A DNA stretch of 59,523 bases, filler included. It is 4 parts of 4 records of this genome, joined end to end, with 100 filler letters (N's around TTAATTAATTAA, not from the genome) between each part and the next. Parts side by side here need not be neighbours in the genome. Positions count along the whole stretch, not along the records: positions 14,347 to 33,075 come from SRR31156797_14236; 3 more parts are not named here. One strand, 5' to 3'. The position numbers and the translations under genes were made by a program. The notes below the pieces were generated by a model. It was not told the DNA's origin and searched no databases. It saw only the letters and a list, made by a program, of their open reading frames with translations. Shown piece by piece: positions 14,581-42,284 of the stretch. How positions within the stretch are numbered: the stretch's first letter is position 1; every line of letters begins with the position of its first letter.

Positions 14581-14586
14581 GGCTAA

Positions 14587-17330: not shown

Positions 17331-17341
17331 ACGAGGTCATT

Positions 17342-20300
17342 ATGGCAAAGTTTTTCATCGATCGACCAGTCTTCGCAATGGTCATTTCGATCATTATTGT
17401 CCTGGGCGGCTTAGTCTCTATGAAGGCAACACCGATCGCTCAATATCCGGACATCGCCCCACCAACAGTGCAGGTCACTGCCTTGTATCCTGGAGCTACA
17501 GCCGAGGTTATAGCCAACACCGTCGCCGCTCCTCTCGAGGCGCAGATTAACGGTGTTGAGGATATGAGCTATATGCTCTCCACTAGTTCGTCGAGCGGCA
17601 ACATGACGCTGACGGTAACCTTTGAACCCGGAACCGACCCTAACCAGGCCCAGGTGAACGTGCAGAATCGAGTCAGCCAGGCCAGTGCCAAGTTGCCGGA
17701 AGTGGTCGCCAAGCAGGGGGTAACCGTTGAGACGCGGTCCCAGGCATTTATGATGGTCGCTGCATTTTATACAGAAGATGATCGTTATGACCAGACATAC
17801 CTCTCCAACTACGTTAACCTTTATATTCTTGATCCTATTAAGCGCCTTCCAGGTGCAAACCTTTCCAGCATGTTTCCCGTACCCGACATTGCCATGCGCA
17901 TCTGGCTTAAACCTGATCGCCTTGCCCAACTGGGGTTAACATCTACGGATGTCAGCAATGCCATCCAACGGCAGAATCAGGCTTTCGGTGTTGGTCAGGT
18001 CGGTCAGGCACCCGCGACTCCCGGTATTCAACAGAGCTTCGTGGTTACCACCAAAGGAATGCTCACAGATCCGGCTGAATTTGATGAGATCATTATCCGT
18101 GCTGAAGCTGATGGATCGGCCATTGTGCATTTAAAAGATGTAGGTCATGCTGAACTTGGTTCTAAAGACTATTCTATGACGACCAAGATCGATGGTAAAA
18201 AAGCCGCGGCTGTTATTGTCTATCAACAGCCTGGAGCCAATGCCATTGCGACTTCAGAGAAAGTGCGGGCACTGATTGAAGAATTGAAACCGGGGTTTCC
18301 AGATGGCCTTGAATTTAAATACGTCATTGATACCAGTAAATTTACCGAAGCATCCATCGAAAAGGTGGTGCACACATTTTTTGAGGCGGTAGTGCTGGTC
18401 GTACTGGTTGTTCTCTTATTCCTTCAGAGTCTCCGTGCTACGTTTATTCCAATCCTGGCGGTACCGATTTGTATTATCGGAACCTATACCGGTATTTATT
18501 TTCTTGGATTTTCGACCAATATGCTCACCCTTTTTGGCATGATTCTGGCCATTGGTCTGGTGGTCGATGATGCGATTATCGTGGTTGAGAGCGTCGAACA
18601 CAATATGGCGACCTTAAAACTTTCCCCAATCGATGCTGCTCGTAAGGCCATGGACGAGTTGTCCGGGGCGTTAGTTGCCATCGTGTTGGTTTTGGTTTCC
18701 GTCTTTTTACCGGTTGCATTCCTGGGTGGATTGACTGGTACGCTTTATAAACAGTTTGCCATCACCATCGCCATCTCCATGGTTATTTCCGGAGTTGTTG
18801 CCTTGACACTTTCTCCTGCATTGGCAGCCCGTATCCTGAAACCTGGGGTACATGAGAAAAAGGGCTTTGGGAAGTGGTTTGATAACGGTTTTAACCGACT
18901 CACTGATGGTTACGTGGTTGGGGTGCGTTTTTTAATCAACCATAAACTGATTGGCCTTAGCCTCTTTGGCGGTGTGGTGGTTGCAACTCTTTTCTTATTT
19001 CGGATATTACCGGGAAGTTTTGTACCTGCAGAAGATCAGGGGTATCTCTTTGGTATTAACATGATGCCAGATGCAGCAAGCCTGGAACGAACCACTTCTG
19101 CTGCTGATCAAGCCATCAAGATTCTGCATGAAAATGGTGCAGTCAGTTCAGCATTCCAGGTTGACGGATATAGTTTAATTGACAGCCAGAATAAAACGAA
19201 TGCTTCCGTATTGTTTACTGCATTGAAGCCTTATGATGAACGCGAAGGTGAAGAATCAGGGGCTTTTGCAGTGCTTGATAATCTTCGGCGTAATTTTTCA
19301 GCTATTAAGGAGAGTGTTGTTATTCCATTGAACCCTCCATCCATCCCTGGGCTTGGAACCACTGGAGGTTTTGAATTCTACATCCAGAATATGGGCAGTG
19401 GCAGTTCTCAGGAACTTGAGAAAATAGCCAAAAAATTTATTGCTAAAGCCAAAGAGCGAGTTGATCTTGCGGGTGTTGCCACAACCTTTTCGGCGTCGCA
19501 GCAGCAGCTCTATTTTGATCTCGATCGCAACCGTGCTGAACTCCTTGGGGTGCCTGTTTCAGACATCTACGAGACACTGCAGGCATATTTTGGTTCCTCC
19601 TACGTTGCACAGTACGTTCAGTTCGGTAGGATTTGGCAGGTTATCATCCAGGCTCAGGCGAAATACCGTGATGAGCCTGCTGATTTCGATCAGATCTATG
19701 TGCGATCAGCCAATAGCGGTAAAATGATTCCGCTCTCAGCTTTGGCAACAGTGCGCTATGAGCCAGGTGCCGGGCTGATGCCGCGTTTTAATGGTTTTCC
19801 TGCAGCAAAACTGACCGGTAGTCAATCTGCTGGATATAGTACTGGGCAGGCGATTACTGCGATGGAGGAGATTGCAGCTGAGGTTCTTCCAGATGGATAC
19901 GGGTTTTCATGGTCTGGTCAGGCTTATGAGGAAAAGAAATCAGGTGGTACCTCCAGTTCTGCCTTTATATTTGGTCTTATCATGGTTTTTCTTATTCTGG
20001 CTGCCCAGTACGAAAAATGGTCGTTGCCGATAGGGGTAATGATGGCGGTTCCTTTTGCAATCTGTGGTGCGCTCTTGGCAACATGGGGACGGGGGCTGGA
20101 AAATGATGTTTACTTCCAGGTTGGGCTGGTGACCCTGATTGGTCTTTCTGCCAAAAACGCTATTTTGATCATCGAGTTTGCGGTTGAAAACTTGCACGGC
20201 GGGATGTCAGTGGTGGATGCAGCCGTCGAAGCAGCTCGTCTACGTTTACGACCAATTGTTATGACTTCGCTGGCTTTCATTCTTGGTTGTGTACCGATGG

Positions 20301-20500
20301 CTATTGCAACTGGAGCTGGTGCTAACAGTCTGCATGCCATCGGCACAGGGGTCATTGGGGGCATGTTGTTTTCCACTCTGATTGCCTCGTTTTTTGTACC
20401 GCTGTTTTTTGTTTTTATAGAAAACTCATCGGGGCTTTTTAGCCGCAAGAAGAAAGCTCCACCAAAAGCGGCTCCTCAAGGAGGTGACCATCATGCATAA
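17342..20500 (+). CDS. HAE1-family multidrug RND permease (AcrB/MexB-like)
   Basis: 1052 aa; FFIDRPVFA, GLVVDDAIIVVE, AKNAILIIEFA, RLRPIVMTS. Confidence 0.95.
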   Translation: MAKFFIDRPVFAMVISIIIVLGGLVSMKATPIAQYPDIAPPTVQVTALYPGATAEVIANTVAAPLEAQINGVEDMSYMLSTSSSSGNMTLTVTFEPGTDPNQAQVNVQNRVSQASAKLPEVVAKQGVTVETRSQAFMMVAAFYTEDDRYDQTYLSNYVNLYILDPIKRLPGANLSSMFPVPDIAMRIWLKPDRLAQLGLTSTDVSNAIQRQNQAFGVGQVGQAPATPGIQQSFVVTTKGMLTDPAEFDEIIIRAEADGSAIVHLKDVGHAELGSKDYSMTTKIDGKKAAAVIVYQQPGANAIATSEKVRALIEELKPGFPDGLEFKYVIDTSKFTEASIEKVVHTFFEAVVLVVLVVLLFLQSLRATFIPILAVPICIIGTYTGIYFLGFSTNMLTLFGMILAIGLVVDDAIIVVESVEHNMATLKLSPIDAARKAMDELSGALVAIVLVLVSVFLPVAFLGGLTGTLYKQFAITIAISMVISGVVALTLSPALAARILKPGVHEKKGFGKWFDNGFNRLTDGYVVGVRFLINHKLIGLSLFGGVVVATLFLFRILPGSFVPAEDQGYLFGINMMPDAASLERTTSAADQAIKILHENGAVSSAFQVDGYSLIDSQNKTNASVLFTALKPYDEREGEESGAFAVLDNLRRNFSAIKESVVIPLNPPSIPGLGTTGGFEFYIQNMGSGSSQELEKIAKKFIAKAKERVDLAGVATTFSASQQQLYFDLDRNRAELLGVPVSDIYETLQAYFGSSYVAQYVQFGRIWQVIIQAQAKYRDEPADFDQIYVRSANSGKMIPLSALATVRYEPGAGLMPRFNGFPAAKLTGSQSAGYSTGQAITAMEEIAAEVLPDGYGFSWSGQAYEEKKSGGTSSSAFIFGLIMVFLILAAQYEKWSLPIGVMMAVPFAICGALLATWGRGLENDVYFQVGLVTLIGLSAKNAILIIEFAVENLHGGMSVVDAAVEAARLRLRPIVMTSLAFILGCVPMAIATGAGANSLHAIGTGVIGGMLFSTLIASFFVPLFFVFIENSSGLFSRKKKAPPKAAPQGGDHHA

Positions 20501-21932
20501 ATGGCTAATTGGCACTCTTTTCCTTTTAGTGGTCAATGGTTGCACTCTTGGTCCGGATTATGTGCGGCCGCCGGTTGAAACGCCGTCTGCGTGGACAGTC
20601 TCCTACGATGCGGCTGCAGATTTAACTGATACTGCCTGGTGGAGGCAGTTCGAAGATCCTGTCCTTGATGAATTGATCGCTTTGGCACTGGTCAATAATC
20701 TTGATCTTAAGGCTGCTATGGCAAGAGTTGATCAATTTCTTGGTCAACTACAGACAACCCGGTCCGAATTCTTTCCGCAGATAGGTGTCTCGGCAAGTGC
20801 CTACCGACAAGATGATACAGATACAGGTTTAAGCTCCGCCACGAGTCCTTACAGTATTTACCAGGGGGCATTGAATGCCACTTGGGAGATCGATCTTTGG
20901 GGACGTGTTCGCCGTTTAAGTGAAGCTGCTCAGGCCGAATTGCTGGCCAGTGAAGCCGGACGCCGCAGCATATTGCTCACTCTGGTGAGTAATGTTGCCA
21001 GCAATTATCTCGTTTTACGTGGACTTGACAGGCAGCTGGAGATCTCCCGAGAGACTGAACAGGCATATGCCGACTCTCTGCGTATTTTTCGCCAGCGGCA
21101 TAAATATGGCACAGTTTCTCTGGTTGAGGTGAGCCAGGTCGAATCTGAATATGAAAATGCCCGGCAAACGATTCCTCAACTGGAATCCAGGATAGCTCAA
21201 CAGCAGAACCTTATCACTTTATTGCTTGGCAGAAGCCCTGGGGCGATACCGCGTGGAAAGGTTCTTGACGACCTTGTTGCCCCTGAGATACCAGCTGACC
21301 TGCCTGCGGAAATCCTTGAGCAGCGACCTGATATCATTCAGGCCGAACAACTGTTAATAGCTGCAAACGCCCGTATTGGTGTAGCACGTGCACTTTATTT
21401 CCCGCGTTTTTCCCTGACAGGTGCCCTTGGCACTGCCAGCATTGACTCAGATCTCTTGTTTGATGGATCTTCAGGGGCCTGGCAGATAGGTGCTGATGTA
21501 CTTGGGCCAATTTTTACTTTTGGATCTATCGAGGGGCAGGTCATGGCTAGTGAAGCCGCTCAGCAGGAAGCTGTTTTCAGTTATCAGCAGTCAATTTTAG
21601 CTGCCTTGCGCGATGTTGAAGACGCCTTGATAGCGACCACTAAGGGGCGTGAACGTCAGCTTTTTCAGGGGCGCCGAACCAGTGCTCTTGAAACCTACGC
21701 ACGTTTGGCCAGGCAACAGTATGACAATGGAACAACAGGCTACCTGCAGGTCCTTGATGCCAATCGGAGCCTTTTTTCCAGCCAGCTTGATTACGTGCAA
21801 ACTCAGATAGGAGTGTTGACAAGCCTTGTTGATGTCTATCGGTCTTTAGGTGGTGGTTGGGTGGACGAGGCTGATCGTATGAGTCAGCCCGTTGCATCAG
21901 TTGAGGGGGGCGGGAAAGACACAGATCAGTAG
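20493..21932 (+). CDS. Outer-membrane efflux lipoprotein (OprM/NodT family)
   Basis: VNGCTLGPDY lipobox, WEIDLWG, QRPDI..AE, YRSLGGGW; ATG 20493 after GGAGGTG. Confidence 0.93.
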   Translation: MHKWLIGTLFLLVVNGCTLGPDYVRPPVETPSAWTVSYDAAADLTDTAWWRQFEDPVLDELIALALVNNLDLKAAMARVDQFLGQLQTTRSEFFPQIGVSASAYRQDDTDTGLSSATSPYSIYQGALNATWEIDLWGRVRRLSEAAQAELLASEAGRRSILLTLVSNVASNYLVLRGLDRQLEISRETEQAYADSLRIFRQRHKYGTVSLVEVSQVESEYENARQTIPQLESRIAQQQNLITLLLGRSPGAIPRGKVLDDLVAPEIPADLPAEILEQRPDIIQAEQLLIAANARIGVARALYFPRFSLTGALGTASIDSDLLFDGSSGAWQIGADVLGPIFTFGSIEGQVMASEAAQQEAVFSYQQSILAALRDVEDALIATTKGRERQLFQGRRTSALETYARLARQQYDNGTTGYLQVLDANRSLFSSQLDYVQTQIGVLTSLVDVYRSLGGGWVDEADRMSQPVASVEGGGKDTDQ

Positions 21933-21998
21933 CAGAATATGCTTTTGGGTTTACGGCGTCGCCAGTCACCTTATGTCGGTAAAGGGGACTCAATGGAC

Positions 21999-22916
21999 TT
22001 ATTTGAACTTCTTTCTTCTTCGCCTCTCTGGTGCATGCGTATGGTTTGCTAAAAATACCGCAAAAATGACTATTCCGGCTCCACTAAGTTGGGTCATGGT
22101 CAATGACTCACCAAGCAGTACCCACGCACCAAATGCGGTTACCAAGGGGATAGCGTTAATACAGACCGATGCCTTGGCCGCAGGGATTTTGGTAAGGGCG
22201 TAATTATAGCATAGAAAAGCTCCAATAGTGGCGAAAAGAGTGAGCCCGATCACGGCGAGGATAGCTTCATTGGTTACAGCCTGAGGGTTGAAGTTCGGTA
22301 GATCATAAATAAAGGCTGGGAAAAAGATCATTGCCCCAAAAATAATCTGCATGCCGGTAATTTGCCTTGAAGGTATGTTTGCCCCTAAACGTCTGGTCAT
22401 GATCATATAGACAGAGGCGGACAGTACCGCTCCAAATATGAGAAGATCTCCAATTAACATGCCCCCCAGTTCCTCTTTCTTGCCAGTGCCAAACACCAGT
22501 AGAGATACCCCGACTAGAGAGAGTATTATTCCAAGAAAGTTAATGGTCCTGATCCGTTCTTTCAGCAGAAGGGCAGAGAGGGACAAAACGACTACCGGTA
22601 TGGTTGCAATGATTAACGAGGTCTTGGTGGCAGAGGTATATTGGAGGCCAAAGGTCTCAAAGGTAAAGTAAAGTCCAGGTTGCATCACTGCAAGTAACAA
22701 CAAGGATTTCAGGTCTTTTTTGCTGAGTGTTTGAAAACCTGTTCGCCAGAAAAGGATCACGAAAAAAAGTGATGCCGTGAAAAAGCGGATAAAGATAAGA
22801 CAAAAAGGCGTAAAGCTCTGCAGTGCGACCTTGGTGGCTACAAAAGAGAGACCCCAAAAGAGAACTGCCAGCATGAGGGCTATATAGGTGTACAAGGGGT
22901 TTTCTGATTGTATCAT
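21999..22916 (-). CDS. EamA/DMT-family transporter
   Basis: ~10 TM; FWGLSFVATK, GLQYTSAT, LLKERI, LLGE. Confidence 0.92.
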   Translation of the reverse strand: MIQSENPLYTYIALMLAVLFWGLSFVATKVALQSFTPFCLIFIRFFTASLFFVILFWRTGFQTLSKKDLKSLLLLAVMQPGLYFTFETFGLQYTSATKTSLIIATIPVVVLSLSALLLKERIRTINFLGIILSLVGVSLLVFGTGKKEELGGMLIGDLLIFGAVLSASVYMIMTRRLGANIPSRQITGMQIIFGAMIFFPAFIYDLPNFNPQAVTNEAILAVIGLTLFATIGAFLCYNYALTKIPAAKASVCINAIPLVTAFGAWVLLGESLTMTQLSGAGIVIFAVFLANHTHAPERRRRKKFK

Positions 22917-23437
22917 TTGCAGATAGCTCGTTGAGAAAGAGAGAGTGTTCTTTTCATTGTTGGTGAATTTCAGGCAGCGAGCTTACTCTAAATAGGCTTG
23001 AAAATCCCGCACGGAATACAGGAAAAGGCGTAGTATGCAGGTATTTGGATGAGCTGTTAAATGCTACCCTGCAAATAGTTTTTTTCCTGTCAGCTGTGAA
23101 GTGAGCAATTATGTCTTGGATGACTCTTGGCGAGCACTTTGCACGATTGTGTATTTTTTTCTGTCCCTTCTCCTTATTCTTCATGCTCGTGTACCCATCA
23201 ATTAGTTAATGAACATGGGATTCATGTCCCCCAAATGCATATTAATTATTATTGGCGGAAATTCCAGGGTACGTGTGATTTAGGTAGTATATAAAAAGCA
23301 CTATACATCGGCAAAGCCTATTCTTGGTATCGGATTAATTAATTTTTAGTATTGTACATTTAAAATGAATACATGTACCTTCTCATTTTTGATACATTTT
23401 ATCAGGGTTGAGGAATTCGGAAAGAAAGGAGAGAAAC

Positions 23438-24451
23438 ATGAAAAGAAGATTAGTATTGGCCGCAATTTTGTTTTGTTTGTTTATGCCGTTTTCAACAATG
23501 GCAGCACAAAAAGCATCCGGAACAATATCAATGAAGTTTGACCTTACTGATCAGCCGGCTGATAAAGAGGCAAAGATTTGGATTCCCTATCCAATATCTG
23601 ACAATGATCAGCTCATCACGAATATCTCGATTAATGGTGATTATGCAGAAGCGGCTGTCTATTCGGACCAGACATATTCAACGCCGATGCTTTACGCCCG
23701 TTGGGACAAAGATGCAACAAGTCGTAAACTGGTTTTCAGTTTTCATGCAATTCGCAACGAGGTTGTGAAAAAAGATTTCCCTGCAAAAGAGGGAGCTTGG
23801 GACCCGGCAGACTATCAACTCTATTTAAGCCCAACTAGCATGGGGCCAATTGACGGGGTGGTAAAAGAGTTGTCAGACAATATTGTGGCCGACAAAACTT
23901 CTGTTCACGATAAAGCAAAGGCTATCTATGACTGGATCTGTGACAATATGTACAGAGATCCGAAAACCAACGGTTGTGGACCGGGGGATGTATGTTCTCT
24001 GCTGTTAAAACCGGGTGGGAAATGCACTGATATTCATTCGGTTTTTGTAGCACTTGCTCGTGCCGCTGGTGTTCCTGCCAGGGAGGTTTTTGGTATTCGT
24101 CAAGGAAAAGACAGCGTGGTAGACATAACCAAATGGCAGCATTGTTGGGCTGAATTCTTCCTGCCTGGATACGGCTGGGTACCTATTGATCCTGCAGATG
24201 TTCGTAAAATGATGCTCAAACATGACCTGAAACTTGGAGATAAGAAAACCAAAGAGTACCGAGATTATTTCTGGGGCGCCTGGGATCAGTATCGCGTAAA
24301 ATTGGCGGTCGGCCGTGACCTTCTCTTAAATCCACCACAGGCTGGGAAACCACTCAATACCTTCGGCTACCCCTATGCTGAGGTCGGTGGCGAGACCATC
24401 GATTGGCTTGAGCCTTCCACATTCAAATACACTATCACCTATACCAAGTAG
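23438..24451 (+). CDS. Exported transglutaminase-like (Cys-His-Asp) protein
   Basis: Signal peptide; GGKCTD..FVALARAAGVPAR, HCWAEF, WVPIDP; ATG 23438 after AAGGAG. Confidence 0.9.
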   Translation: MKRRLVLAAILFCLFMPFSTMAAQKASGTISMKFDLTDQPADKEAKIWIPYPISDNDQLITNISINGDYAEAAVYSDQTYSTPMLYARWDKDATSRKLVFSFHAIRNEVVKKDFPAKEGAWDPADYQLYLSPTSMGPIDGVVKELSDNIVADKTSVHDKAKAIYDWICDNMYRDPKTNGCGPGDVCSLLLKPGGKCTDIHSVFVALARAAGVPAREVFGIRQGKDSVVDITKWQHCWAEFFLPGYGWVPIDPADVRKMMLKHDLKLGDKKTKEYRDYFWGAWDQYRVKLAVGRDLLLNPPQAGKPLNTFGYPYAEVGGETIDWLEPSTFKYTITYTK

Positions 24452-24475
24452 GTTGAAGTAATTCTTTATTTTTCT

Positions 24476-24511
24476 CTATGGGGCCGTCAATCGATGGTCC
24501 CATAGTTTTTT
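24476..24511 (+). terminator. Rho-independent terminator
   Basis: CTATGGGGCCGTC-aatc-GATGGTCCCATAG followed by a T-run. Confidence 0.7.
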
Positions 24512-25314
24512 GTTCTGAAACCATAAGTATGGCAAATGAAATCTGTAATCAGCAATTTGAGATACTTCCTAAGTATTTTTCAGTACGGACATGCCAGGTG
24601 ACGGATACTGCCTGTTTAGCAAGCGTTGGTATTGGCCGTGCGAATCTCCAGAAAGTCCATTTTCACCTAAGATATATATATTTCCTGTGTCTGGCCGATC
24701 TTAACACTAATAATCCCGGGCGAAAACTGTTATGCGGATCTGACTTGAGAAAAAAAGGCAGGAAATGTGGTCAAAATAATACTTCGGCCACACGACCTCC
24801 GTTGCCATGCAGCTACATATGCCTCAAGGTATGGAAATCCAATCGAAATTGTGAGAAAGGTCATCCCACGTCATGCCGACTTTTCAACGACTCAGCGGTA
24901 CCTGGGAGAGGTCAAGTAACCTGAAGCAATTGGTTGAATCAAAACGCTTTATTGATAGATACTCCACAACGGGCGGTAAAAGGCTCACACTCATCAATGG
25001 ACAAGAAAAATCTTCCCATCGCATCAGCGACCGAAATATGGTAGTGCCAAGAATAATCTTCTCATCAGAACTGAAGGGCTGCATTGTACCTTGAGAGTTC
25101 TCGTCCCAAACTGCATCGAAAATAGATTGTCTTGACCTCACCGAAAACGGTGTGTATAAATTCTGGCCATGAAAACCTACTAGTCCACCATAACTGCAAT
25201 CAGCAGTTCTCTATTCTGAATCGTTTGCTTTGGTAAATATACGAACAGCGAATCAGTCCGTGCATCCTGCGCAATTAGGATGTTTGTATCTTTTTGATAA
25301 CAAAAGAGGTTTTC

Positions 25315-26151
25315 ATGAAACTCAACGACTATATAAAATCCGCCTCTCGCCCTCCAGTTTACACACCCGGAACTGCAACCATGTGGGACGATAAGCATAT
25401 TTCAAAACAACTTCTGGCCGTTCATCTCAATCCGGACATTGACCTTGCCAGCAGAAAACCGGCTACTATCCTCACTACAATTGAATGGTTGGAAAAAGTT
25501 TTTCTGAAACCAGGGGCAGCAATACTTGATATGGGATGCGGGCCTGGCCTGTACAGCGAACAGCTTGCCGAGAGAGGGTATAGAGTTACAGGGGTAGATA
25601 TCTCTGCTAACTCCATCCACTATGCATATGAGTCTGCCAAAAAGAACGGGTTGGATATAGACTATCGCAACCTGGATTACGTGAATTTGGACGACAGGGA
25701 AGGCTTTGACCTTATCCTCATGATATTCACCGATTTTGGAGTACTGGTTCCGGAAGTCCGCAAGAAAGTACTGACTAATATATACAGAGCCCTAAAGCCC
25801 GGCGGGGCATTTTGTTTCGATTTTCTCAACAACTCGTACCCTATTGCCGAAACTGGAAATAGGGAGTGGGAAATATGTAATGGGGGATTCTGGAGAAAAG
25901 GGCCTTACCTTGCTCTACAGGAAAAACTCTATTATCCTGAGCAGAATGTTTGCCTTAATCAACATGTTGTAACGGGCGACAACGGGAAAACGAGTATTTA
26001 CAGGTTTTGGACCCATGCGTTCAATCACGACCAAATCAATGAGCTAATTGGAGTGCATGGTTTTGTAAGTTGCAGCTTCTATGAGGGTATTCTTCCCGAC
26101 AGTGAATTTTACAATTCCGGTGATATAAGTTTCTGCATTGCTTATAAGTGA
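25315..26151 (+). CDS. Class I SAM-dependent methyltransferase
   Basis: ILDMGCGPGLY, VTGVDIS, LKPGGAFCFD; ATG 25315 after AGAGG. Confidence 0.9.
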   Translation: MKLNDYIKSASRPPVYTPGTATMWDDKHISKQLLAVHLNPDIDLASRKPATILTTIEWLEKVFLKPGAAILDMGCGPGLYSEQLAERGYRVTGVDISANSIHYAYESAKKNGLDIDYRNLDYVNLDDREGFDLILMIFTDFGVLVPEVRKKVLTNIYRALKPGGAFCFDFLNNSYPIAETGNREWEICNGGFWRKGPYLALQEKLYYPEQNVCLNQHVVTGDNGKTSIYRFWTHAFNHDQINELIGVHGFVSCSFYEGILPDSEFYNSGDISFCIAYK

Positions 26152-26362
26152 GTGCTAAGAGAAATTAGTACCTGAAATAATCCAGCATAAAGAAGATTTG
26201 GATCGTTGGGTGAGTCTTTCCTGAAAGATACATCATTCATCGGTCCATATCTGGCAATCTGCTCTCAATAGCTAAAGAGGGACAAGCTAAGCCTGGTCAG
26301 GAACCTGCTTATGTTAAGATTTATGGTAGAAAGGAGATGGTTAGATTAACTGAAGGGGGGGC

Positions 26363-26530
26363 ATGACAATGCTAATGAATCCACACACAGGATCAGTGGC
26401 AACCGAAGAAGAGTGGCGTGAAGTGTTTGCAAACTCATCCCCCGAAGAGTGGGGTGGCGAGAACTTTGAAGATGCAGATTTAAGTCCCGTCATCTTCAAC
26501 AGCGTTGGGGTTTGGGTGGAAGTGGATTGA
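26363..26530 (+). CDS. Small acidic Trp-containing hypothetical protein (55 aa, not in the ORF track)
   Basis: MTMLMNPHTGSVATEEEWREVFANSSPEEWGGENFEDADLSPVIFNSVGVWVEVD; G-rich RBS directly upstream. Confidence 0.6.
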   Translation: MTMLMNPHTGSVATEEEWREVFANSSPEEWGGENFEDADLSPVIFNSVGVWVEVD

Positions 26531-26778
26531 TATATGCAAGGGACAAGCCCATTAATACAACAAGTAGGTTGTTGATCACCCCGAGGTTATAAACACTACG
26601 CCACGCAGGATGCTGTGCAGTTCCCATTGTACGCAAGCGATTGATAATAATGCATTGAGACTTGCTGAGGTCAGCAAAGATATATTATTAAGGGCTTTTA
26701 TTGAGCATCCTAACAGCATGTCAGACACGTCAGCTTGTGCTTATTCCTGTAACCTCCCCCACCCACACACGAACGTCC

Positions 26779-27072
26779 CTACTCGCCGATGATTTTTACC
26801 AGCACTCTCTTTTTGCGGCGACCGTCAAATTCACCGTAAAAGATCTGCTCCCAGGTGCCGAAATCAAGCTGACCGTTGGTGATGGCAACTACAACTTCAC
26901 GACCCATGATCTGGCGTTTCATATGAGCGTCAGCATTGTCCTCATAGCCGTTGTGCCGGTATTGACTGACCGGTTCATGGGGAGCCAGCTTTTCAAGCCA
27001 TACTTCGTAGTCATGATGAAGTCCGGACTCATCATCATTGATAAAAATAGAGGCTGTTATGTGCATCGCGTT
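26779..27072 (-). pseudogene. yjbQ: Displaced 3' part of yjbQ (intact frame, no own 5' end)
   Basis: 95 aa match the C-terminal 95 aa of 28686-29102 except 3 residues; similarity stops abruptly at 27072. Confidence 0.85.
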
Positions 27073-28678
27073 TGCTAAACAAATCTTGTTTAACAGCAGG
27101 GTCGTCTAAGTCTATTTCTAAAAGATCCAGAACCTCATGCTTTGTCATTGGCAGAAAACCACATATTTGTTTGTCCGGTTCAACCAACCCTCTAACTTCA
27201 TAGAACCAATTACCTAAGTGATCTTTTGTAACATATATCCCTGCACGGTCACCATCAGGTGTAACACCAGAGAAAAAGAATTCGCATAAGTTGCGCCTTT
27301 CTTCCCATGTCATTTTTAGAAAATGCTCACCTCGGCCCAATCGGTTTTTGGCAGCCCTTTCTAACACTTTTTGTATGAAGTTGCCTTGTGCCTTTATCTT
27401 TGCAGGTGAAGGGACATTTTCTATTTTTTTCTCACTAATGGCGATTTCTTTTTCAATCTTGTCTTGTCGAACTTGAAGTTTGTCCCTTTCTATTTTAATA
27501 TCTTCTTGCTTAAGAACATCCTTAGCTACAGCTCTCACTAAATTGGTTAATTCTTTTTCAATTGATTTTAGATCATTCCGAAAAAACTCAATCTCTTTAC
27601 GAATTTTCTCAGAGTCACCATACTTATCAACTGATCTATTGATTGCTTTTTCAATCGATAAATGATCGCCATAAAGACTATACAATTTAACAAATACAGC
27701 CTGCTCAATTTCATCAGCCGAAATCCATAATCCTATATCACATTCCTTTTTTCTGCCACGTGCATGTCTATAATACCTACGCTTACCATGATTTGTTTGT
27801 CCAAACATGGCATATCCACAACGAGCACAAAATATCATTCTGCTAAACAAGTATTTGTTCTTAATATTCCCATGCTCATAAGTTTTGTTACTCTCAGATT
27901 TTCTCCAAATAGCATCGATTGTCTCTTGAGGCAACAACGGTGGAATGGTTAGAGTTACTGTTTCTGATATATTTAACCGTTTATTATCAAATTCTATAAC
28001 CCACTCAGTACCTGAACGATTCTTTAAGATTTTCCATAGATTAGAGTGATTCATCCCTAAAGTTTTGGCAATTTCACTCATTGATTTGCCGTTGAGATAC
28101 TGATCTGCCGCCCAAACAATTTTCCTCTGCTTTTCAGTATCAACACCCCACTCATGCTTCTTTCTATCGTAAGTACGACCATAAGGAGGCTTTCCTGCAC
28201 TTGGAATATTATTTTTAGCCCTAGCTATTCGACTTAGTAAACTTTTTCTAGCTTGTTCCAGAGCGAAGTACTCATTCATCTCAGTACTCATACCAAGGAA
28301 CAATGTGGCCTGAGGATCAAATAGATTGTATTCAGTGGCACCACAGAAAAATCTTATACCGTTTTCTTTCAGTATACTTAATCCCTCTTTGCTGAGCCTG
28401 TTATCCCTTGACCACCTGCTTGGATCGAACACGATAACTGCGTCAAATTGATCTTTACTCGCATCCGAGAGTAATTGAGTAAACATTTGTCTTTCATAGT
28501 CAGGAGTTGCATGCTCTTGCCCTGTGTATTTCCAACAGTGATCAGGGACATAACCACCTTCAATGTTTGCGATAGATTTTAGAATTGCTTCCTTCTGTGT
28601 GTCTAAAGATGATCCCTGATCTTCCTGTTTTTCTGTACTGACCCGTATCAGAGGAGCAAATCGGATTGATTCCCTCAT
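27035..28678 (-). CDS. Large serine recombinase (resolvase + recombinase + Zn-ribbon + coiled coil)
   Basis: IRVSTEKQ catalytic motif, [32 protein letters not shown], long coiled coil; 547 aa. Confidence 0.93.
27049..27072. repeat. Direct repeat / att junction (recombinase side)
   Basis: AGAGGCTGTTATGTGCATCGCGTT; extends to 35 bp with one mismatch. Confidence 0.85.
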
Positions 28679-28685
28679 AATTTTT

Positions 28686-29102
28686 CTATTCCCCGATGAT
28701 TTTTACCAACACTCTCTTCTTGCGCCTACCATCAAACTCACCGTAGAAAATTTGTTCCCATGTGCCAAAGTCAAGTTGACCATCGGTAATGGCAACAACA
28801 ACCTCCCTGCCCATGACCTGCCTTTTCATATGGGCGTCAGCGTTGTCCTCGTAGCCGTTGTGCCGGTACTGGCTAACCGGCTCATGGGGCGCTAGTTTTT
28901 CAAGCCATACTTCGTAGTCATGGTGCAGACCCGATTCGTCATCGTTGATAAAAACAGAGGCTGTTATGTGCATCGCGTTACAGAGTAGAAGCCCGTCAGA
29001 GATCTGGCTTTCTCGTAAACACTCTTCTACTTGCGGTGTGATATTGATGAAGCCTCTTCTTGATGGCACTTCAAACCATAGTTCTCTTCGATAACTTTTC
29101 AT
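28686..29102 (-). CDS. yjbQ: YjbQ/UPF0047 family protein (secondary thiamine-phosphate synthase family)
   Basis: [37 protein letters not shown] 29102 after GAGG. Confidence 0.92.
28956..28979. repeat. Direct repeat / att junction inside intact yjbQ
   Basis: AGAGGCTGTTATGTGCATCGCGTT, identical to 27049-27072. Confidence 0.85.
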
Positions 29103-29636
29103 TTGTTGCCTCAATATGATGTGGTTGGTTTATCATTTATAATGATAGTAAAATCGGACATTAAAGAAAAATCAAGAAAAGATAAAACTAGGCTCTGCTG
29201 CTATTTTTGGCTTGGAACGATGAAGTGTATACAGACGGTGCAAGGAAAGCGTTGTCGCTCGATTATCGCTGTTTTAGAGTTGGTTGCCAGCGAATGCCTG
29301 TGTAGGCCACTTGTTGTTGATGGCAAGTTAATTTGGAAAATTTGCGAAGGTGAAAATATTTTCGTGGAGACAACTGGAGCTAATATGCAGGTGCCGACGC
29401 ATTTAGAAAAAATCATACCGTAAACGTCAAAAGAGTTTCCAGGCATGGCTACCGATTGATAGCAATCAGCAAAAAAATCATAAAATGCACACTATAAGAA
29501 ATAGGCGTAGAAGAATTCTTTCTTATCGGAAAAGTTGCATGGTTAGGACATGAGGTAACGTGAATCAATTGCAGTGACAGGCTTTTTGTAAATTGGAAAA
29601 TTTAACAACAACCACATTGTGTGCTGTCTTAAGTCG

Positions 29637-29684
29637 AGAGGGCAAATTACCTATGAAAATTGGGTAGTTTGCTCTTTTTTTTTT
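29637..29684 (+). terminator. Strong Rho-independent terminator with no obvious upstream CDS
   Basis: AGAGGGCAAATTACCTA-tgaaaat-TGGGTAGTTTGCTCTTT followed by a T-run. Confidence 0.7.
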
Positions 29685-29971
29685 AATGGAGAGGCGTATA
29701 ATACTCGATCACTTTGGCTTAAATTTTCATCTATCGACGAGTTATACAGGAAAGAACTTGAAGAGAAGAGAGCCACTTCAAAAGAAGCAATTACATGAAT
29801 TGTAGGTAAATCTGCTATCACTATACCACCTGAGACAATGGCAGCAGTTCAAAACATGTCGATATTTTGCTAAAATATATAAATATGATGTGATTTATAT
29901 ATTTGCATAAAATTATATGGGGCTTTGTCATAGTTGCAGAACAAACCTACATCTGAGAAATATGCCTTTCC

Positions 29972-30033
29972 AGCTTTTCTCCCCACTCAATCCTTATGCC
30001 TAATACAGAAGGGTTTGAGTGGGGAGAAAAGCT
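29972..30033. repeat. Perfect 19-bp inverted repeat upstream of the SSS-CDPS operon
   Basis: AGCTTTTCTCCCCACTCAA (29972-29990) / TTGAGTGGGGAGAAAAGCT (30015-30033). Confidence 0.9.
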
Positions 30034-30193
30034 TTGTGGGGCTTGGTTGCCAAACAAATTTGCCATTTACTCAAGCCTTAGTCGAGTTTCCAATTGGTTA
30101 TAATTACGTTTGAAAAATCACGTCCAACAACGACATCTTCTGCAAAACTGACAAAGAACCAATTATATACAATATATTCTTAGGAGGAGCAAT

Positions 30194-31783
30194 ATGCCAG
30201 CACATGTATCAATTTTTTCCTTTTGGTTTGCGATGATATTAGCCCTAGGATCTCTTCTATTTTATTTAGCATCTGCGTTTTGGTTTAGGACATTGTCCAA
30301 GGAAATTGGAGATAACATTGAAGATTTTAATCTAGGTATACCAAGTTCTTCTAATAACAATAATATTTTTTCCATATCACTTATTGCCGCTGGCACATCT
30401 CTTTCTACAGTATTTGTTTTTTTCCTAACTGCTGGCTCTATATTTGGTTGGTGGATGATTCTGTCACCAATCATGTTTGCTGCTGGCAACGCTATAATGT
30501 TCAAAGTTTATAATCGCATCAAAGCAAATGGTTATTTTGTTGAAAATAATCTCCAAACTCATGGGGTAACTGGACTAATACCGTACATAGGAAAAGCAGT
30601 TACAGGTAATAATTCTGTAGGGTGGATTTTATTATTTTTATCAGTTTTCAACCTTTTATCTGTACTTTCTTTAGAGCTTATTGTTGGCGTAGAAGTATTT
30701 GGCTATTTATCTTCAAATACATTCGGAACAACTTCATCTTCTATTGGTGAATTTTTAGTATTCATATTTTCAATTATATTATTACTGGGCTATGTGTATG
30801 TAGGGGGATTTAGAGCTGTTGTTTCTTCTGACATATGGCAGATGAAGGCTATGAAATGGGCAATATTCATAACCATTGCTAGTTTAGTGATTTTTGCTTT
30901 TAGTGCTAACAATAAAGGTGTTAGCTTAAGTTTGCTGAATAGAACTCCACCTACTATAGTGCTAGTAGGTTTTATTCTAAACGTAATTTTGGCAAACTGC
31001 TTTGCTCCAATGAGTCAAGAGGCATCATGGCAACGATTCAGGGCATTCTCCAATGCAAAAGGAATTATTCTTGACAAAGCAATGTTGTTGGCAATAGGTC
31101 AATCGCTGCTTCTTTGGATAGGGTTGATAGTATTGTCCTTTAGTTTATTGCTCGTGATTCCTCCTGGATCAGGAGTCGAGCTAACCTCAATGTCAAATGT
31201 TTTAGAAGTGTTAAGAACTCTTAATAATTGGTGGTTTCCACTTTTTATTTTCCCTGTACTGACTGTAGCCGCGCTATCAGCAATGTATTCTACTGCAGAC
31301 ACTTCAGTTTCAGCCTTGCTGTATTTAATAGAGTATTTTCGTTATACTCATAATAAACCTATGGATAAGATCCAAACTGAGAGAATAAAAAACGGTTACA
31401 CATTCTCAATGGTATTAATTTTTCTTGTATGTACTGGTTCTTACTTCTTTGTTCGCATTTGGTTTAACCCTACAATTCTACAACTTGTTTTCTCTGTGTT
31501 TAGCAATTTGGTAGTTATAGCGCCCACAATTCTGACTGCAGCAGTAATTGCTCCAGTGTCATCGGATAAAGACCAATCTCAAAAACGCACACCATTCATA
31601 ATTACTTCTATATTGCTAGGATTTGTTTCTTATTGGTCCAGCACTATTTTGGCATTGATTTTGGGAGGTGAATATCTTTGGCTTAGTCAATTATCTATAG
31701 TAATTGGTCTTATAGGTGCAATAATTCCTGTCATACCTCTCTGGGTGTCAGTAAATAAAAAACAAACTTTAGAGGTGAAATAA
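30194..31783 (+). CDS. Sodium:solute symporter (SSS/SLC5)-like membrane protein
   Basis: ~13 TM; YVYVGGFRAVVSSDIWQ, WQRFRA, ALSAMYSTADTS motifs; AGGAGG RBS. Confidence 0.82.
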   Translation: MPAHVSIFSFWFAMILALGSLLFYLASAFWFRTLSKEIGDNIEDFNLGIPSSSNNNNIFSISLIAAGTSLSTVFVFFLTAGSIFGWWMILSPIMFAAGNAIMFKVYNRIKANGYFVENNLQTHGVTGLIPYIGKAVTGNNSVGWILLFLSVFNLLSVLSLELIVGVEVFGYLSSNTFGTTSSSIGEFLVFIFSIILLLGYVYVGGFRAVVSSDIWQMKAMKWAIFITIASLVIFAFSANNKGVSLSLLNRTPPTIVLVGFILNVILANCFAPMSQEASWQRFRAFSNAKGIILDKAMLLAIGQSLLLWIGLIVLSFSLLLVIPPGSGVELTSMSNVLEVLRTLNNWWFPLFIFPVLTVAALSAMYSTADTSVSALLYLIEYFRYTHNKPMDKIQTERIKNGYTFSMVLIFLVCTGSYFFVRIWFNPTILQLVFSVFSNLVVIAPTILTAAVIAPVSSDKDQSQKRTPFIITSILLGFVSYWSSTILALILGGEYLWLSQLSIVIGLIGAIIPVIPLWVSVNKKQTLEVK

Positions 31784-31784
31784 T

Positions 31785-32237
31785 ATGACTGGATTAAAAG
31801 ACATAATAAATTTTTTAATCCCTATCCCTCCTGCCATTCTTGTAAGAAAGGGGGAAATGCCTAATTGCACAGATATATTTGAAAAGATTTCCAACAGCCC
31901 TCCTAACCCTCGCCCTTTAGGTAGACTGTTTTCATGGTTGTGTAGTATATTATTTCTTTCTTGGATAGTCTTCTCTGTTAATGGTATTATTTTTTCAACA
32001 TGTATAATATTGGCTTTAAGAAACTGGGGTAACAATATACCACTATCAACTCCTTGTTATTTTAATTTATACTCATGCCAAATGATACTATCAATACTTG
32101 CATCACTTCTATTCTTTGGTCAACTATTCTTCTACATTATTGGTATAATTGCATCTCAAGTTTCAGATCGCTGTGTAGAACATGCAACGTGCCAAATTGA
32201 TGGAAAAACAGAAAAGACGAGTGAAAAAGATGGATGA
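31785..32237 (+). CDS. Hypothetical Cys-rich two-TM membrane protein
   Basis: 150 aa; two hydrophobic segments; starts 1 nt after the SSS stop with GAGGTG RBS; stop overlaps the next ATG. Confidence 0.7.
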   Translation: MTGLKDIINFLIPIPPAILVRKGEMPNCTDIFEKISNSPPNPRPLGRLFSWLCSILFLSWIVFSVNGIIFSTCIILALRNWGNNIPLSTPCYFNLYSCQMILSILASLLFFGQLFFYIIGIIASQVSDRCVEHATCQIDGKTEKTSEKDG

Positions 32238-32904
32238 TATCGTAAAGTTTAAAGGTAATGCCTTCATAGGAATTAGCTTAGGGAATAAAGTATTCACAAA
32301 ATCTTTTCTGCAGAGATCATTGAATTTTTTATTGAATAAACACGAAACGATTCTTTTATTGATAGCTGATGACCTCCTGAAATATACGAGAACAATTACA
32401 AACATTAATGGCTTTAATATACTTGATATTAGAGGGGTCTCAACTAAAGTTTCTATTAGGTCTGAAGAATTTTATCGCTTCATACATTCAACAATTGAAA
32501 AAATCGACCCAAAATGTCGGCCTAGAATCCTAGTTAGACGTTGGGCCTCTTTTGCAGATGCAGAATACGTCAACATAGCAAGATCCTTACAGATAGGTTA
32601 CGCATCAATTAAAGACTTTAAAGACTTGGTGAACAATGTAGCCAGACAACACATTGACAAATCAGAGACCATTAAAAATATACCTGGCATCATGGAATTA
32701 TGTTCCCAATACCTTATAGATGAGGTTGCAATGAACCTTAGAGTAACTGAAATAGAAAAATACTCATTTGAGTATTACCCGGGTGAAGAAATTGATGTTG
32801 TCAAAAAACTATACAATAATGAATTCGAGAAATATGGCTTATCTATTGAAAATATTACCAACAAAACTAACTTAAAGAGATCTTTTAATTCCTTAGAAAT
32901 ATAA
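32230..32904 (+). CDS. tRNA-dependent cyclodipeptide synthase (CDPS), XYP-like
   Basis: GISLGNKVF (catalytic Ser, Asn), LLIAD, YLIDE (catalytic Tyr/Glu), YYPG; ~224 aa from ATG 32230. Confidence 0.8.
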   Translation: MDDIVKFKGNAFIGISLGNKVFTKSFLQRSLNFLLNKHETILLLIADDLLKYTRTITNINGFNILDIRGVSTKVSIRSEEFYRFIHSTIEKIDPKCRPRILVRRWASFADAEYVNIARSLQIGYASIKDFKDLVNNVARQHIDKSETIKNIPGIMELCSQYLIDEVAMNLRVTEIEKYSFEYYPGEEIDVVKKLYNNEFEKYGLSIENITNKTNLKRSFNSLEI

Positions 32905-33075
32905 ATCTGAAGTTTCCTGTAAACTATACGACAGGGAGGAATGAAAACAGGAGTCAGGTCTTCGCTTGACTCTTTTCAAGATCTATCGGGGCTAGATCAC
33001 GATGAGGGCGAAGGCTTGGGGCATGCGTGGTGACGGCTTTAGCTTAGTTCCATGTGCTTTTAACGTAAATCCTGC

Positions 33076-33175
33076 NNNNNNNNNNNNNNNNNNNNNNNNN
33101 NNNNNNNNNNNNNNNNNNNTTAATTAATTAANNNNNNNNNNNNNNNNNNNNNNNNNNNNNNNNNNNNNNNNNNNN
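33076..33175. other. Artificial contig linker
   Basis: N-run/TTAATTAATTAA/N-run, 100 nt. Confidence 0.97.
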
Positions 33176-35480: not shown

Positions 35481-36108
35481 CTACTCTCCTTTTTGAAAAC
35501 TCATTTAATATTTCATCTTTTGAAAACCCTTTCTGTAAAAAGGTACAAAATTCTTTTGTAAACTTTGCAACAGCTACACTTGAACCTGCTATCTCTTTTT
35601 GACTAGAGAAAGGGTTTGCTCCAAAATATTTTCCCTCATCATCCAAAGAAACTACTTTTTCATCTTTACACATCCATTCAGATGTAACTTTTATAACACC
35701 TTCATAAGATGCAGGGAAAACTTGTAAGTTTGCACGTCTTGGATATGAAGAGATTATTGTTGTTCCCTTTGACATAAGTTTTTTACAAATCTCTTCTATT
35801 TCTGTATAGTTTTGAGACAAACCTAAACTCAAATTTATAACATCAATCTCTTTTTCTAAAAGATACTCTAAGGCATAATATACATGAAGAGGTGTTGTTT
35901 TAAGTTCTTCATTAAAAACTTGAATCTCATAAATATCAATATTTTTACTATTGATTATTGAAGTAATAACCTCTCCATGCTTGAACTTTAAATCTTTTTG
36001 CTTTTCTATTTTATGATTAAAGTTCTCATCAAAACTAATAGCTATTTTTTCATATGTTTCAAAACTACTTCCACTATCTAAAATAGCAACTTTTATGTTT
36101 TTACTCAT
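35467..36108 (-). CDS. qhpE: Subtilisin-like leader peptidase
   Basis: Short subtilase triad ILDSG, KHG, INLSLG, GSSVA; cluster context. Confidence 0.85.
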   Translation of the reverse strand: MSKNIKVAILDSGSSFETYEKIAISFDENFNHKIEKQKDLKFKHGEVITSIINSKNIDIYEIQVFNEELKTTPLHVYYALEYLLEKEIDVINLSLGLSQNYTEIEEICKKLMSKGTTIISSYPRRANLQVFPASYEGVIKVTSEWMCKDEKVVSLDDEGKYFGANPFSSQKEIAGSSVAVAKFTKEFCTFLQKGFSKDEILNEFSKRRVDEPR

Positions 36109-37750
36109 GCTTATACTCTTTTATTTGTTTCTCTTCTATTTTTAAATACCTTGCATTTTTATAACAATCCAGATGTGAAATTATAATCTTAGTTGAATCT
36201 TTGAAGTTTTCATCTATCAAAGAATCTATAAGTTTTATAAAATCTTTATCTAAAGCAGAAGTTGGTTCATCCATAATAAGTATTGATGGTTTTTGTAAAA
36301 CTAATCTTGCTATAGCTAATCTTTGTTTTTGACCACCAGATAAGTTTTGTCCATCTTCACTTAAAATAGTATTCAAACCATTTTCAAGATTTTCATACCA
36401 AGATAAAAGTCCAACTTTATCTAATACATCAATCAAAATATCCTTATCAGAATCTTTTTTTGCTATCAAAAGATTCTCTTTTAAACTTGCATTCAGTACA
36501 ACTGGATTTTGCTCAACTAAACCAATATAGTTTTGAAATGTTTCATTTTCAATTTGATTTATATTTATTCCGCCTAATAAAATTTCACCTTTGTTTAGTG
36601 CTAAATTATTTGTAAGAAGTTCTATCAAAGTAGTTTTTCCAATACCATTTTTACCCAATAAAACAACTTTCTCTTTTGCTTTTATTTTTAAGTTCAAATC
36701 TTCAAAAATATTTGCTAAATGAGGGTATGAAAAAGTGATATTTTTCAATTCTAAATCTAAGTTTTTTTCTAAAAATTTTATATCTTTTTTAGATGCCTCT
36801 TTAGGAGTTATCTCTTCTAATCTTTGCATACTAACTTTTAGTTTAGGAATATTATTTAAAATCCCTAAAATAGTATGAACAGGAGATAAAACCATAGAAA
36901 AGTAACTTAAAAATGCAATCAACTCACCAACTGTTATTTCACCTGCTATAACTTTTAATCCACCAAAAATGATTAATGAAACTCTTGCAAGTAAAGCTAC
37001 AATAACTGGTATTTGAGTAAACTTTATTTGTAAAACTTGTTGTTCTAAAATCTTTTGTTTGTTTATATCTTGCAAAGAAACTAAACTATCTTTTCTACTC
37101 TTAACTGCATTTGTTTTTTTCAAAAAATTTACATATCGTAAAGACTCAATTATAAAGCTTCCCATTATTGCGCTACTTTGTCTTACATCTTTTGTGATAT
37201 CATGCATTTTTGAATACATTGGTTTTAATAAAAAAAACTCTAAAGGAAATAATACAAGAGCAAAAATAGCAAGAGTTATATCAAAAAAGAACATTATAAT
37301 AAGAGCACCTATTAAACCCAAAAGTGCAGAAAACAATGCAAAGATAGAATCTATTCCAAACCTCTGAAGTTCACTAATATCACCTTCAATCCTTGATAAT
37401 AAATCCCCTACTCGATATTTTTGAAAAAAAAGTTTTTTGTTTAAAAATATCTTTTCAAAAATATCTATTCTAAGGCTATACAAAACTTTTATTGAAAGCT
37501 TTGTATAGTTGTATTGTAAAAAGACAGAAAAAACTATTGAAAATATAGAAACAATTATAATCAGGGAAACAAAATAATAAAAATTGTCAATATTTTTTAA
37601 AAGCAATGCACTATCTATAAACTTTTGCATCAAAAGAGGTTGTATCACTGCTATACCACTTGATATCATTGAGATACCAAGTAGTAAAAAAATAGTGTTT
37701 TTTTCTTTTAAGATATAGTATTTTAAGCTATTTACAACACTATTTTTCAT
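36101..37750 (-). CDS. qhpF: ABC exporter (fused TM + ATPase)
   Basis: TM domain, GKNGIGKTT, LSGGQKQR, DEPTSALD; cluster context. Confidence 0.85.
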   Translation of the reverse strand: MKNSVVNSLKYYILKEKNTIFLLLGISMISSGIAVIQPLLMQKFIDSALLLKNIDNFYYFVSLIIIVSIFSIVFSVFLQYNYTKLSIKVLYSLRIDIFEKIFLNKKLFFQKYRVGDLLSRIEGDISELQRFGIDSIFALFSALLGLIGALIIMFFFDITLAIFALVLFPLEFFLLKPMYSKMHDITKDVRQSSAIMGSFIIESLRYVNFLKKTNAVKSRKDSLVSLQDINKQKILEQQVLQIKFTQIPVIVALLARVSLIIFGGLKVIAGEITVGELIAFLSYFSMVLSPVHTILGILNNIPKLKVSMQRLEEITPKEASKKDIKFLEKNLDLELKNITFSYPHLANIFEDLNLKIKAKEKVVLLGKNGIGKTTLIELLTNNLALNKGEILLGGININQIENETFQNYIGLVEQNPVVLNASLKENLLIAKKDSDKDILIDVLDKVGLLSWYENLENGLNTILSEDGQNLSGGQKQRLAIARLVLQKPSILIMDEPTSALDKDFIKLIDSLIDENFKDSTKIIISHLDCYKNARYLKIEEKQIKEYKHE

Positions 37751-37751
37751 C

Positions 37752-38891: not shown

Positions 38892-38903
38892 TGTTAACCT
38901 TTC

Positions 38904-39227
38904 CTATTTCTTTTCTTGTGGATAAACACTTGTATATTTTCTCCAATCATCTTGTGTTGAAGAATAATTAGAACTCCATTTAGAATTGTTCATAGTATCA
39001 GGAACCTGAGTAGGCCACCAGCAAGGGTCAGCACAACCATATAAGTCAGACTCCATAGGTTGGCATAATCCTGCAACTCCACCAAAGGCATCAACTTCCC
39101 AACCTGGGTCAAAAGTTGAAGTACAACCTACAATACTTTGCATTGCCATAACTTCTTTTTCAGTCCCATCTTTTATTGATTTATTTAATAAATCAGCTTT
39201 TGGATTTAAAGGTTTAAATAAGCCCAT
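38904..39227 (-). CDS. qhpC: Quinohemoprotein amine dehydrogenase gamma subunit precursor
   Basis: 28-aa leader then [40 protein letters not shown] with C7/E16, C27/D33, C41/D49, C37/W43 at canonical positions; ATG 39227 after AAGGAG. Confidence 0.96.
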
Positions 39228-40617: not shown

Positions 40618-40628
40618 AATTTCTCTCC

Positions 40629-42215: not shown

Positions 42216-42284
42216 CTTTACTCCTTTTATTCTTTTCAATCAAAATTGATCAAACGAATTATAAAAATAAAGAAAAAAAATGTA

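Follow-up and report, generated by a model that had tools for sequence, protein, structure and literature searches.

Where a large serine recombinase gene stands between two copies of the same target gene, which copy belongs to the host, and how much of the surrounding DNA moves? A locus of this kind lies in a 59,523-nt stretch of DNA (hereafter the window), in which four contigs are joined in one pseudo-molecule; the locus itself sits on an 18.7-kb contig (14347-33075). A first-pass annotation, made from the letters alone, described an intact yjbQ, a gap of 7 nt, the recombinase, and a second yjbQ 3′ part, and took these for a cargo-less 1.9-kb element that is bounded by 24-bp repeats and that swaps about 95 codons of its target when it moves. 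The open reading frames (ORFs) and coordinates are as described there, and it is the boundaries of the element that we read differently. With a probability of roughly 0.8, the window holds one attachment junction (attR) of a larger island, whose serine integrase inserted it into host yjbQ at the AA of codon N42. The intact yjbQ beside the integrase is most likely the island's own copy, here called yjbQ_e, and the host gene is most likely split, with 27072-26779 as its displaced 3′ half. The features on which the argument turns are these:

29102-28686, minus strand: complete yjbQ (UPF0047, 138 aa), read as the island copy yjbQ_e (PF01894, E=1.8e-36; TIGR00149, E=4.1e-33).
28678-27035, minus strand: large serine recombinase (integrase), 547 aa (PF00239, E=5.3e-13; PF13408, E=2.2e-12; phrog_95 integrase, E=1.1e-52).
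27073-27088, minus strand: P-arm half-site of attR, caagatttgtttagca, within the integrase 3′ end; it matches locus L001 and is inverted at the other island end in relatives.
27071-27072, minus strand: predicted crossover dinucleotide AA, the first two bases of yjbQ codon N42, at the symmetry centre of the P and P′ arms.
27072-26779, minus strand: displaced yjbQ 3′ fragment, read as the host's (codons 42-138 and stop), on the host side of attR; an open frame, 85% identical to the island copy.

The two yjbQ copies form a direct repeat of 294 nt at 85% identity, with a start-to-start spacing of 1907. Its 45 mismatches comprise 7 at first, 0 at second, and 38 at third codon positions and leave only three amino acid differences (V50I, V96I, and D107N), all conservative; nonsynonymous divergence (dN) is 0.026 and synonymous divergence (dS) 1.54. 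Recomputation thus returned the first-pass values for the spacing, the mismatches, the amino acid changes, and the 24 identical leading bases. Judged by their sequences, the copies are old and each is under purifying selection, as had been proposed, and a dS of 1.5 does not suit a recent duplication. The recombinase ORF crosses the junction by 12 codons into the distal yjbQ copy, in a different frame, and tblastn of the whole window found no yjbQ pieces beyond the two copies.

By its domains and modelled fold, the recombinase is a large serine integrase with catalytic and zinc-ribbon domains, the latter with an embedded coiled coil. PF00239 covers residues 11-155 and PF13408 residues 277-330, PF07508 gave no match at E<=0.001, and R12, S14, T15, E16, and Q18 are invariant across 32 relatives. 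An AlphaFold model built from these 32 sequences (predicted local distance difference test score, 78) places long helices at 321-444, and in Foldseek it matched the serine integrase 9y66_A over its full length (E=6e-16, about 575 columns), as well as PhiC31, Bxb1, and 4kis. In sequence the protein is remote from solved integrases, of which only TP901-1 matches (E=2.2e-4). Its homologues number more than 500 and come mostly from uncultured members of Desulfobacterota and of other phyla; the family spans Thermodesulfobacteriota, Bacteroidota, Planctomycetota, Spirochaetota, and Lentisphaerota, among others, and E. coli genomes gave no match. A viral contig collection held a single relative, so the element is not a typical phage.

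We then asked what accompanies this recombinase elsewhere. Scans with the alignment of 32 gave 33 genome loci and 80 metagenome loci, 113 in all, and clustering at 97% identity left 78 non-redundant recombinases of 480-640 aa, the window's included. The first-pass expectation that relatives would be tied to yjbQ at the NAMH codons is borne out, since 44 of the 78 have a piece of yjbQ directly against the 3′ end of the recombinase. In 18 of the 44 this is the 3′ part (from about codon 38-45) in the orientation of the recombinase; in the other 26 it is the 5′ part, which spans codon 1 to about codon 43-53 and lies on the strand opposite the recombinase. No yjbQ fragment was detectable with the query used in 14 of the 78 that have at least 400 nt downstream. 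For another 20 the contig is too short to judge. Of the 78, 19 end less than 400 nt past the recombinase stop, mostly within about 150 nt. These short-ending contigs include the metagenome loci L050, L053, L069, L075, L082, and L097, and their ends are consistent with assemblies breaking off where a junction recurs or varies within the population.

A complete yjbQ lies directly upstream of the recombinase in 18 cases, and in all cases checked it is 3-12 nt from the integrase. The full arrangement of the window, which we call the module, occurs in nine (the window, L001, L002, L003, L008, L009, L034, L035, and L058). A maximum-likelihood tree places all nine in two exclusive clades, one of six and one of three (Shimodaira-Hasegawa-like approximate likelihood ratio [SH-aLRT] support of 99 and 98, respectively). 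The module label changes twice on this tree, and none of 500 shuffles needed as few changes. Confinement to two clades argues that the module is inherited and is not sporadic debris. The recombinase itself is rare: of 121 sampled genomes of the order to which Desulfosarcina widdelii (G010) belongs, 2 yielded it and 75 yielded yjbQ, mostly as one intact copy, which indicates a patchy, horizontally acquired element.

If the recombinase had inserted a larger island, the remainder of the host gene should be found at the other island end, and this is what the relatives show. Five whole genomes (G009-G013), drawn from the eight other module loci, were searched with the window's yjbQ, and each contained a single orphan 5′ part of the gene, covering aa 1-43 to 1-51. 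This 5′ fragment and the 3′ fragment are on the same strand and 9.2 kb apart in the complete chromosome of D. widdelii, and likewise on the same strand and 10.9 kb apart in G013; the three remaining genomes, those of Desulfopila aestuarii (G009), G011, and G012, have the 5′ fragment on another contig. The second junction (attL) of G009 and G011, read in the direction of yjbQ, closes its host part with codon 41, follows it with AA, and continues as the reverse complement of the arm at the recombinase tail. Thus, attL of L116 reads ...ctctgc AA tgccaaacaaatctag, while the tail arm shared by L001 and the window reads caagatttgtttagca and then AA. The P arm matches the reverse complement of the P′ arm at 14 of 16 positions in G009, 13 in G011, 10 in G012, and 8 each in G010 and G013; the tail arm and the yjbQ side match at only 6-9 of 16. 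In all junctions tabulated, AA is where yjbQ homology starts (attR) or ends (attL), pointing to AA as the probable crossover. In all five relatives, a 138-aa ORF results when the two pieces, orphan 5′ and distal 3′, are joined at AA.

With the host 5′ part elsewhere and fused to the P′ arm, the whole gene beside the recombinase must be island-borne in these relatives, and the island must far exceed 1.9 kb. Similarly, both junctions in the relatives identify the left edge of the repeat as the start of the host fragment at the crossover. Replacement of a target's end would leave no orphan fragment of the other end, and all five relatives have such an orphan; nor do both element ends fall within the 1.9-kb repeat unit in these relatives, attL being 9.2 or 10.9 kb off or on another contig. 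The cargo-less element of the first-pass annotation is thus at odds with five of five searchable relatives. The proposed swap of about 95 codons loses its support with it, given that in these relatives the host gene is split and the gene beside the recombinase belongs wholly to the island. The annotation's fallback, a remnant of a larger island, came close: we keep the larger island and favour an island end in place of a remnant.

The wider family shows that islands insert in two orientations. On the integrase strand, islands co-oriented with host yjbQ have AA at the centre, and those of the opposed class have TT. Both classes fit the rule that serine-integrase sites take their polarity from the central dinucleotide alone. 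In G002, G003, G005, G014, and G015, opposed islands span 7.4-18.8 kb, with the two host halves on a single contig and the 3′ half in the expected orientation, and the far island end of L014 again has a tail-like arm ahead of AA. The island of G008 is co-oriented, 9.9 kb long, and has its own yjbQ at its other end. For loci with an inverted 5′ fragment, an inversion switch was considered and ruled out by matching 3′ fragments 7-19 kb away.

The content of these islands varies. That of D. widdelii includes a gene resembling a head maturation protease (DUF2213, phrog_530), several ORFs without a family, and, directly upstream of the island yjbQ, a 229-aa tyrosine-recombinase-like gene. The D. 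aestuarii island, at least 20 kb long, has a similar small tyrosine recombinase together with an AAA_25 protein and leucine-rich repeat (LRR) and Sel1 proteins. A small tyrosine-recombinase-like gene (196-231 aa) lies near the serine recombinase in 30 of the 113 loci (e.g., L114 3266-3955 and L005 4978-5568). With few exceptions it is found upstream of the serine recombinase and shares its strand, and in some loci the island yjbQ stands between the two; the small gene may encode an accessory or directionality factor. No such gene was found upstream of yjbQ_e in the window. In G002 (C9 526324-529285), three tandem yjbQ 3′ fragments lie downstream of one occupied site, which suggests that islands replaced each other there repeatedly.

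Codon N42 itself varies at the third base. Host 3′ fragments at occupied sites have AAT in 15 of 19 cases. AAC prevails among unoccupied yjbQ genes, all from a single order (24 of 30), and among island copies (15 of 20), and the host fragment of the window has AAC as well. These counts suggest a preference for T right after AA at occupied sites, in a comparison between sets that differ in taxa. Self-immunity of the island copy through AAC at codon 42 was dropped as an explanation, as unoccupied genes are mostly AAC too.

In the window only the 3′ half of the split gene and only the P arm of attP, the island's attachment site, are visible. We place the window in the same scheme because its P arm is identical to that of L001 (16 nt and 3 more upstream, 19 in all), because three of three searchable members of its clade have a distant attL, and because the 4 kb upstream of yjbQ_e are island-like. 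By analogy with these relatives, the island would extend upstream of the window's module as theirs do. The features that frame the module are the following:

29103-33075, no strand assigned: presumed island cargo (G+C content [GC] 0.355), running to the contig end, with attL expected beyond.
30194-31783, plus strand: membrane-like ORF, 529 aa, of no Pfam or PHROG family.
Between the 529-aa and 240-aa ORFs, and overlapping, in the presumed cargo: 150-aa ORF of no Pfam or PHROG family.
32182-32904, plus strand: 240-aa ORF with weak cyclodipeptide synthase likeness (TIGR04539, E=1.2e-9; PF16715, E=2.6e-5; both below cut-off).
14347-26778, no strand assigned: host flank (GC 0.44-0.48), with resistance-nodulation-division (RND) efflux genes, EamA, a transglutaminase-like gene, a methyltransferase, and a tyrosine-recombinase remnant, by Pfam.
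14247-14346, 33076-33175, and 45227-45326: linkers that join the contigs, N44-TTAATTAATTAA-N44.

Composition changes at the module. The G+C content at third codon positions (GC3) is 0.44-0.49 in genes left of 26779, 0.31 in the recombinase, and 0.25-0.32, near the recombinase value, in the three ORFs upstream of yjbQ_e (30194-32904). In L002 the complete yjbQ is island-like (GC3 of 0.34 and 0.41 in its two halves), the host halves have 0.80 and 0.78, and the composition boundary coincides with attR and does not fall within yjbQ. The presumed cargo also includes a 1.1-kb stretch without any ORF of at least 110 aa, and the 240-aa ORF starts 398 nt downstream of the 529-aa ORF. A scan of promoters and terminators returned 9 promoter-like sites against 9.8 expected and was therefore uninformative. 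Synteny of the window flanks, compared with the first 113 related loci and with 30 unoccupied yjbQ loci, yielded nothing useful, and similarity of the yjbQ 5′ part was dropped as a guide to island or host origin in the window as it was not discriminating.

From these observations a mechanism can be proposed. The integrase would recombine a roughly palindromic attP, which overlaps the integrase's own stop-codon region, with the host attachment site (attB) in yjbQ codon N42. Exchange would probably occur at AA and leave the host gene in two pieces. The minus-strand order would then be cargo (29103 to at least 33075), yjbQ_e, integrase, tail half-site, AA, host yjbQ 3′ fragment, and host DNA, and the host 5′ fragment, fused to the island's other half-site at attL, would be expected past the contig end. 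After insertion the island yjbQ would be the only intact copy. We infer that it compensates for the split host gene; it is probably co-transcribed with the integrase and would drive integrase expression. Islands of the same family in G003, G005, and G014 have no yjbQ copy, and the gene is thus probably dispensable. The integrase ORF runs through attP, so that the C-terminus of the protein should differ between the two states. Such a difference is predicted for L001/L116, L002/L117, L114, and L115, and the predicted integrated and excised lengths in four relatives are 545/640, 548/638, 538/558, and 543/557 aa. Such a state-dependent C-terminus, read here from ORFs, may bear on directionality.

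Several points weigh against an island end in the window. Its attL is unseen because the contig stops 3,973 nt upstream of yjbQ_e, which puts attL off the contig; a search of the window for the predicted attL (P′) arm with up to 3 mismatches gave 0 matches, and the other three contigs contain neither a yjbQ 5′ fragment nor a P′ arm. The 4 kb upstream of yjbQ_e have no detectable similarity to the upstream regions of L001, L002, and L003, and it is for this reason on composition and analogy that we call them cargo. The 3′ part of yjbQ_e has a GC3 of 0.58, above island and host genes alike and about 1.7 standard deviations beyond the usual 5′/3′ difference, which the island model does not account for. 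It also does not explain why the first 24 nt of the repeat are identical in both window copies. When mismatches were shuffled within codon-position classes, a run of at least 24 arose somewhere in the repeat in 36% of trials and at its very start in 0.9% (p ~0.009); gene conversion or chance would be guesses. Finally, the sample of relatives is biased by scans that relied on two peptide patterns, and the recombinase tree came from a quick maximum-likelihood search with SH-aLRT support only.

The main rival to an island end is a fixed remnant: the host 5′ fragment would have recombined homologously with the island yjbQ, attL and the cargo would have been deleted, and a yjbQ chimera would remain together with the integrase and the 3′ fragment of the host gene, all now immobile. 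Such an event would be mechanically simple, with direct repeats of about 125 nt at hand; the three tandem 3′ fragments of G002 are what serial replacement would be expected to leave, and the small tyrosine recombinase usual upstream of the integrase is missing from the window. We nonetheless consider it unlikely, as the 4 kb upstream of yjbQ keep their island-like GC3 of 0.25-0.32, the integrase is intact, and none of the five relatives checked is in such a state.

A self-contained 1.9-kb element, made up of the yjbQ 3′ copy and the recombinase, would move at the 24-bp repeat and swap the last 97 host codons. The anatomy of the window fits it, the position of the 24-nt identity speaks for it, and many relatives lie on contigs of 1.7-2.4 kb; with attL out of sight, the window does not contradict it directly. 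These short contigs, though, are cut inside the repeated yjbQ parts. We tried and rejected the idea that they are excised circles: L035 (1906 nt) starts and ends inside yjbQ parts, and closure needs about 1969 nt. The 24-nt identity is not conserved at the site: across the remaining module loci, these 24 positions show 2-7 mismatches. Against this element stands above all the host 5′ half, which lies elsewhere, joined to the true P′ arm, in five of five searchable module genomes. Moreover, the P arm paired with yjbQ has a dyad symmetry of 6-9 of 16, compared with up to 14 of 16 for the true P′ arm, and no excision factor is present. We thus give the self-contained element only a small chance. 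A variant, in which the cargo is lost or irrelevant here and the 1.9-kb unit cycles itself as a recombinase-only selfish gene, would need no excision factor because yjbQ_e offers an attB-like site in direct repeat with attR, so that the sites before and after recombination resemble each other. Were it true, the unit would be harmless, yjbQ being whole in both states; we regard this, too, as improbable.

It is harder still to believe that the host keeps the recombinase as a domesticated switch to exchange alternative yjbQ 3′ ends. Both copies have open frames and the module is stable within two recombinase clades, but the recombinase occurs in only 2 of 121 genomes of one order, the copies differ by only three conservative residues, and direct repeats permit one-way deletion only. 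An assembly artefact or strain chimera, with two yjbQ alleles and a recombinase misjoined at the repeat, might be suspected in a draft or binned assembly stitched from contigs with different GC on the two sides of the module, but it is scarcely credible when the same order, with a spacing of 1884-1907 nt, recurs in five independent genome assemblies (among them a complete chromosome, L009 of D. widdelii) and in further metagenome contigs, and when a GC step is expected at an island border.

Some observations concern the surroundings of the island end. On the host side, 1.9 kb from attR, lies the C-terminus of a tyrosine recombinase (24767-24919, plus strand; PF00589, E=0.0011, profile positions 127-166 of 172), with frames broken upstream, which may be debris of an earlier element. 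The window's other three contigs have a GC of 0.23-0.36 in 2-kb windows against 0.44-0.48 in the host part of the locus contig, and may come from another organism, that is, from a binning mix. The third contig, one of those with low GC, encodes a quinohemoprotein amine dehydrogenase cluster (36101-42239, minus strand) with alpha and gamma subunits, a radical S-adenosylmethionine (SAM) maturase, and an ATP-binding cassette (ABC) transporter.

Insertion of an integrase island into a coding gene is in itself ordinary, and the locus adds one uncommon twist, the full copy of the target gene on the island. SPbeta (SprA, in spsM), skin (SpoIVCA, in sigK), and gin (GirC, in gerE) are gene-splitting serine-integrase elements (PMC5595907, PMC5499854, PMC4191935), and the yjbQ islands share with them a large serine recombinase at the element edge, insertion inside a protein-coding gene, and, judged from the five searched relatives, halves that would rejoin in frame on excision. 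Unlike these elements, yjbQ islands of the window's clade bring a complete second copy directly upstream of the integrase, so that function need not wait for excision, and their hosts are Desulfobacterota and other non-sporulating phyla. In E. coli, e14 in icd leaves a displaced 3′ pseudogene fragment, icdC, with mostly synonymous differences, and its layout of an intact target gene followed by a displaced 3′ fragment beyond the element resembles ours (PMC13626634). Here, unlike at icd, the whole gene is element-borne, and the host 5′ fragment is left at the other end in relatives. The e14 element brings in just the 3′ end at the crossover and integrates by a tyrosine integrase, and phage 21 in icd of E. 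coli is of the same kind. In Vibrio cholerae, yjbQ is among the insertion sites of mobile elements and defence islands (bioRxiv 10.1101/2024.07.25.605194); the accessible text gives neither the integrase nor the position in or beside yjbQ, so the likeness is one of target gene. Our literature searches found no paper linking yjbQ with a serine recombinase or UPF0047 with attB, and a search for yjbQ with integrase returned none on the present topic, judged by titles. What is new is the island-borne full copy of the target gene and the two orientation classes.

The reading of a single locus as a tiny self-repairing element thus dissolved once the other junction was found in relatives. In its place stands a serine integrase family, widespread and remote, whose members share a single conserved target in a protein gene; its attB can be read directly, and its attP can be inferred from the junctions in relatives; these yjbQ sites and integrases are raw material for genome-engineering toolkits. 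For islands of those lineages that carry a full copy of the gene they destroy, the copy would be a way to cost-free insertion into a coding gene, and it could also drive in-place replacement of the host gene by a foreign copy.

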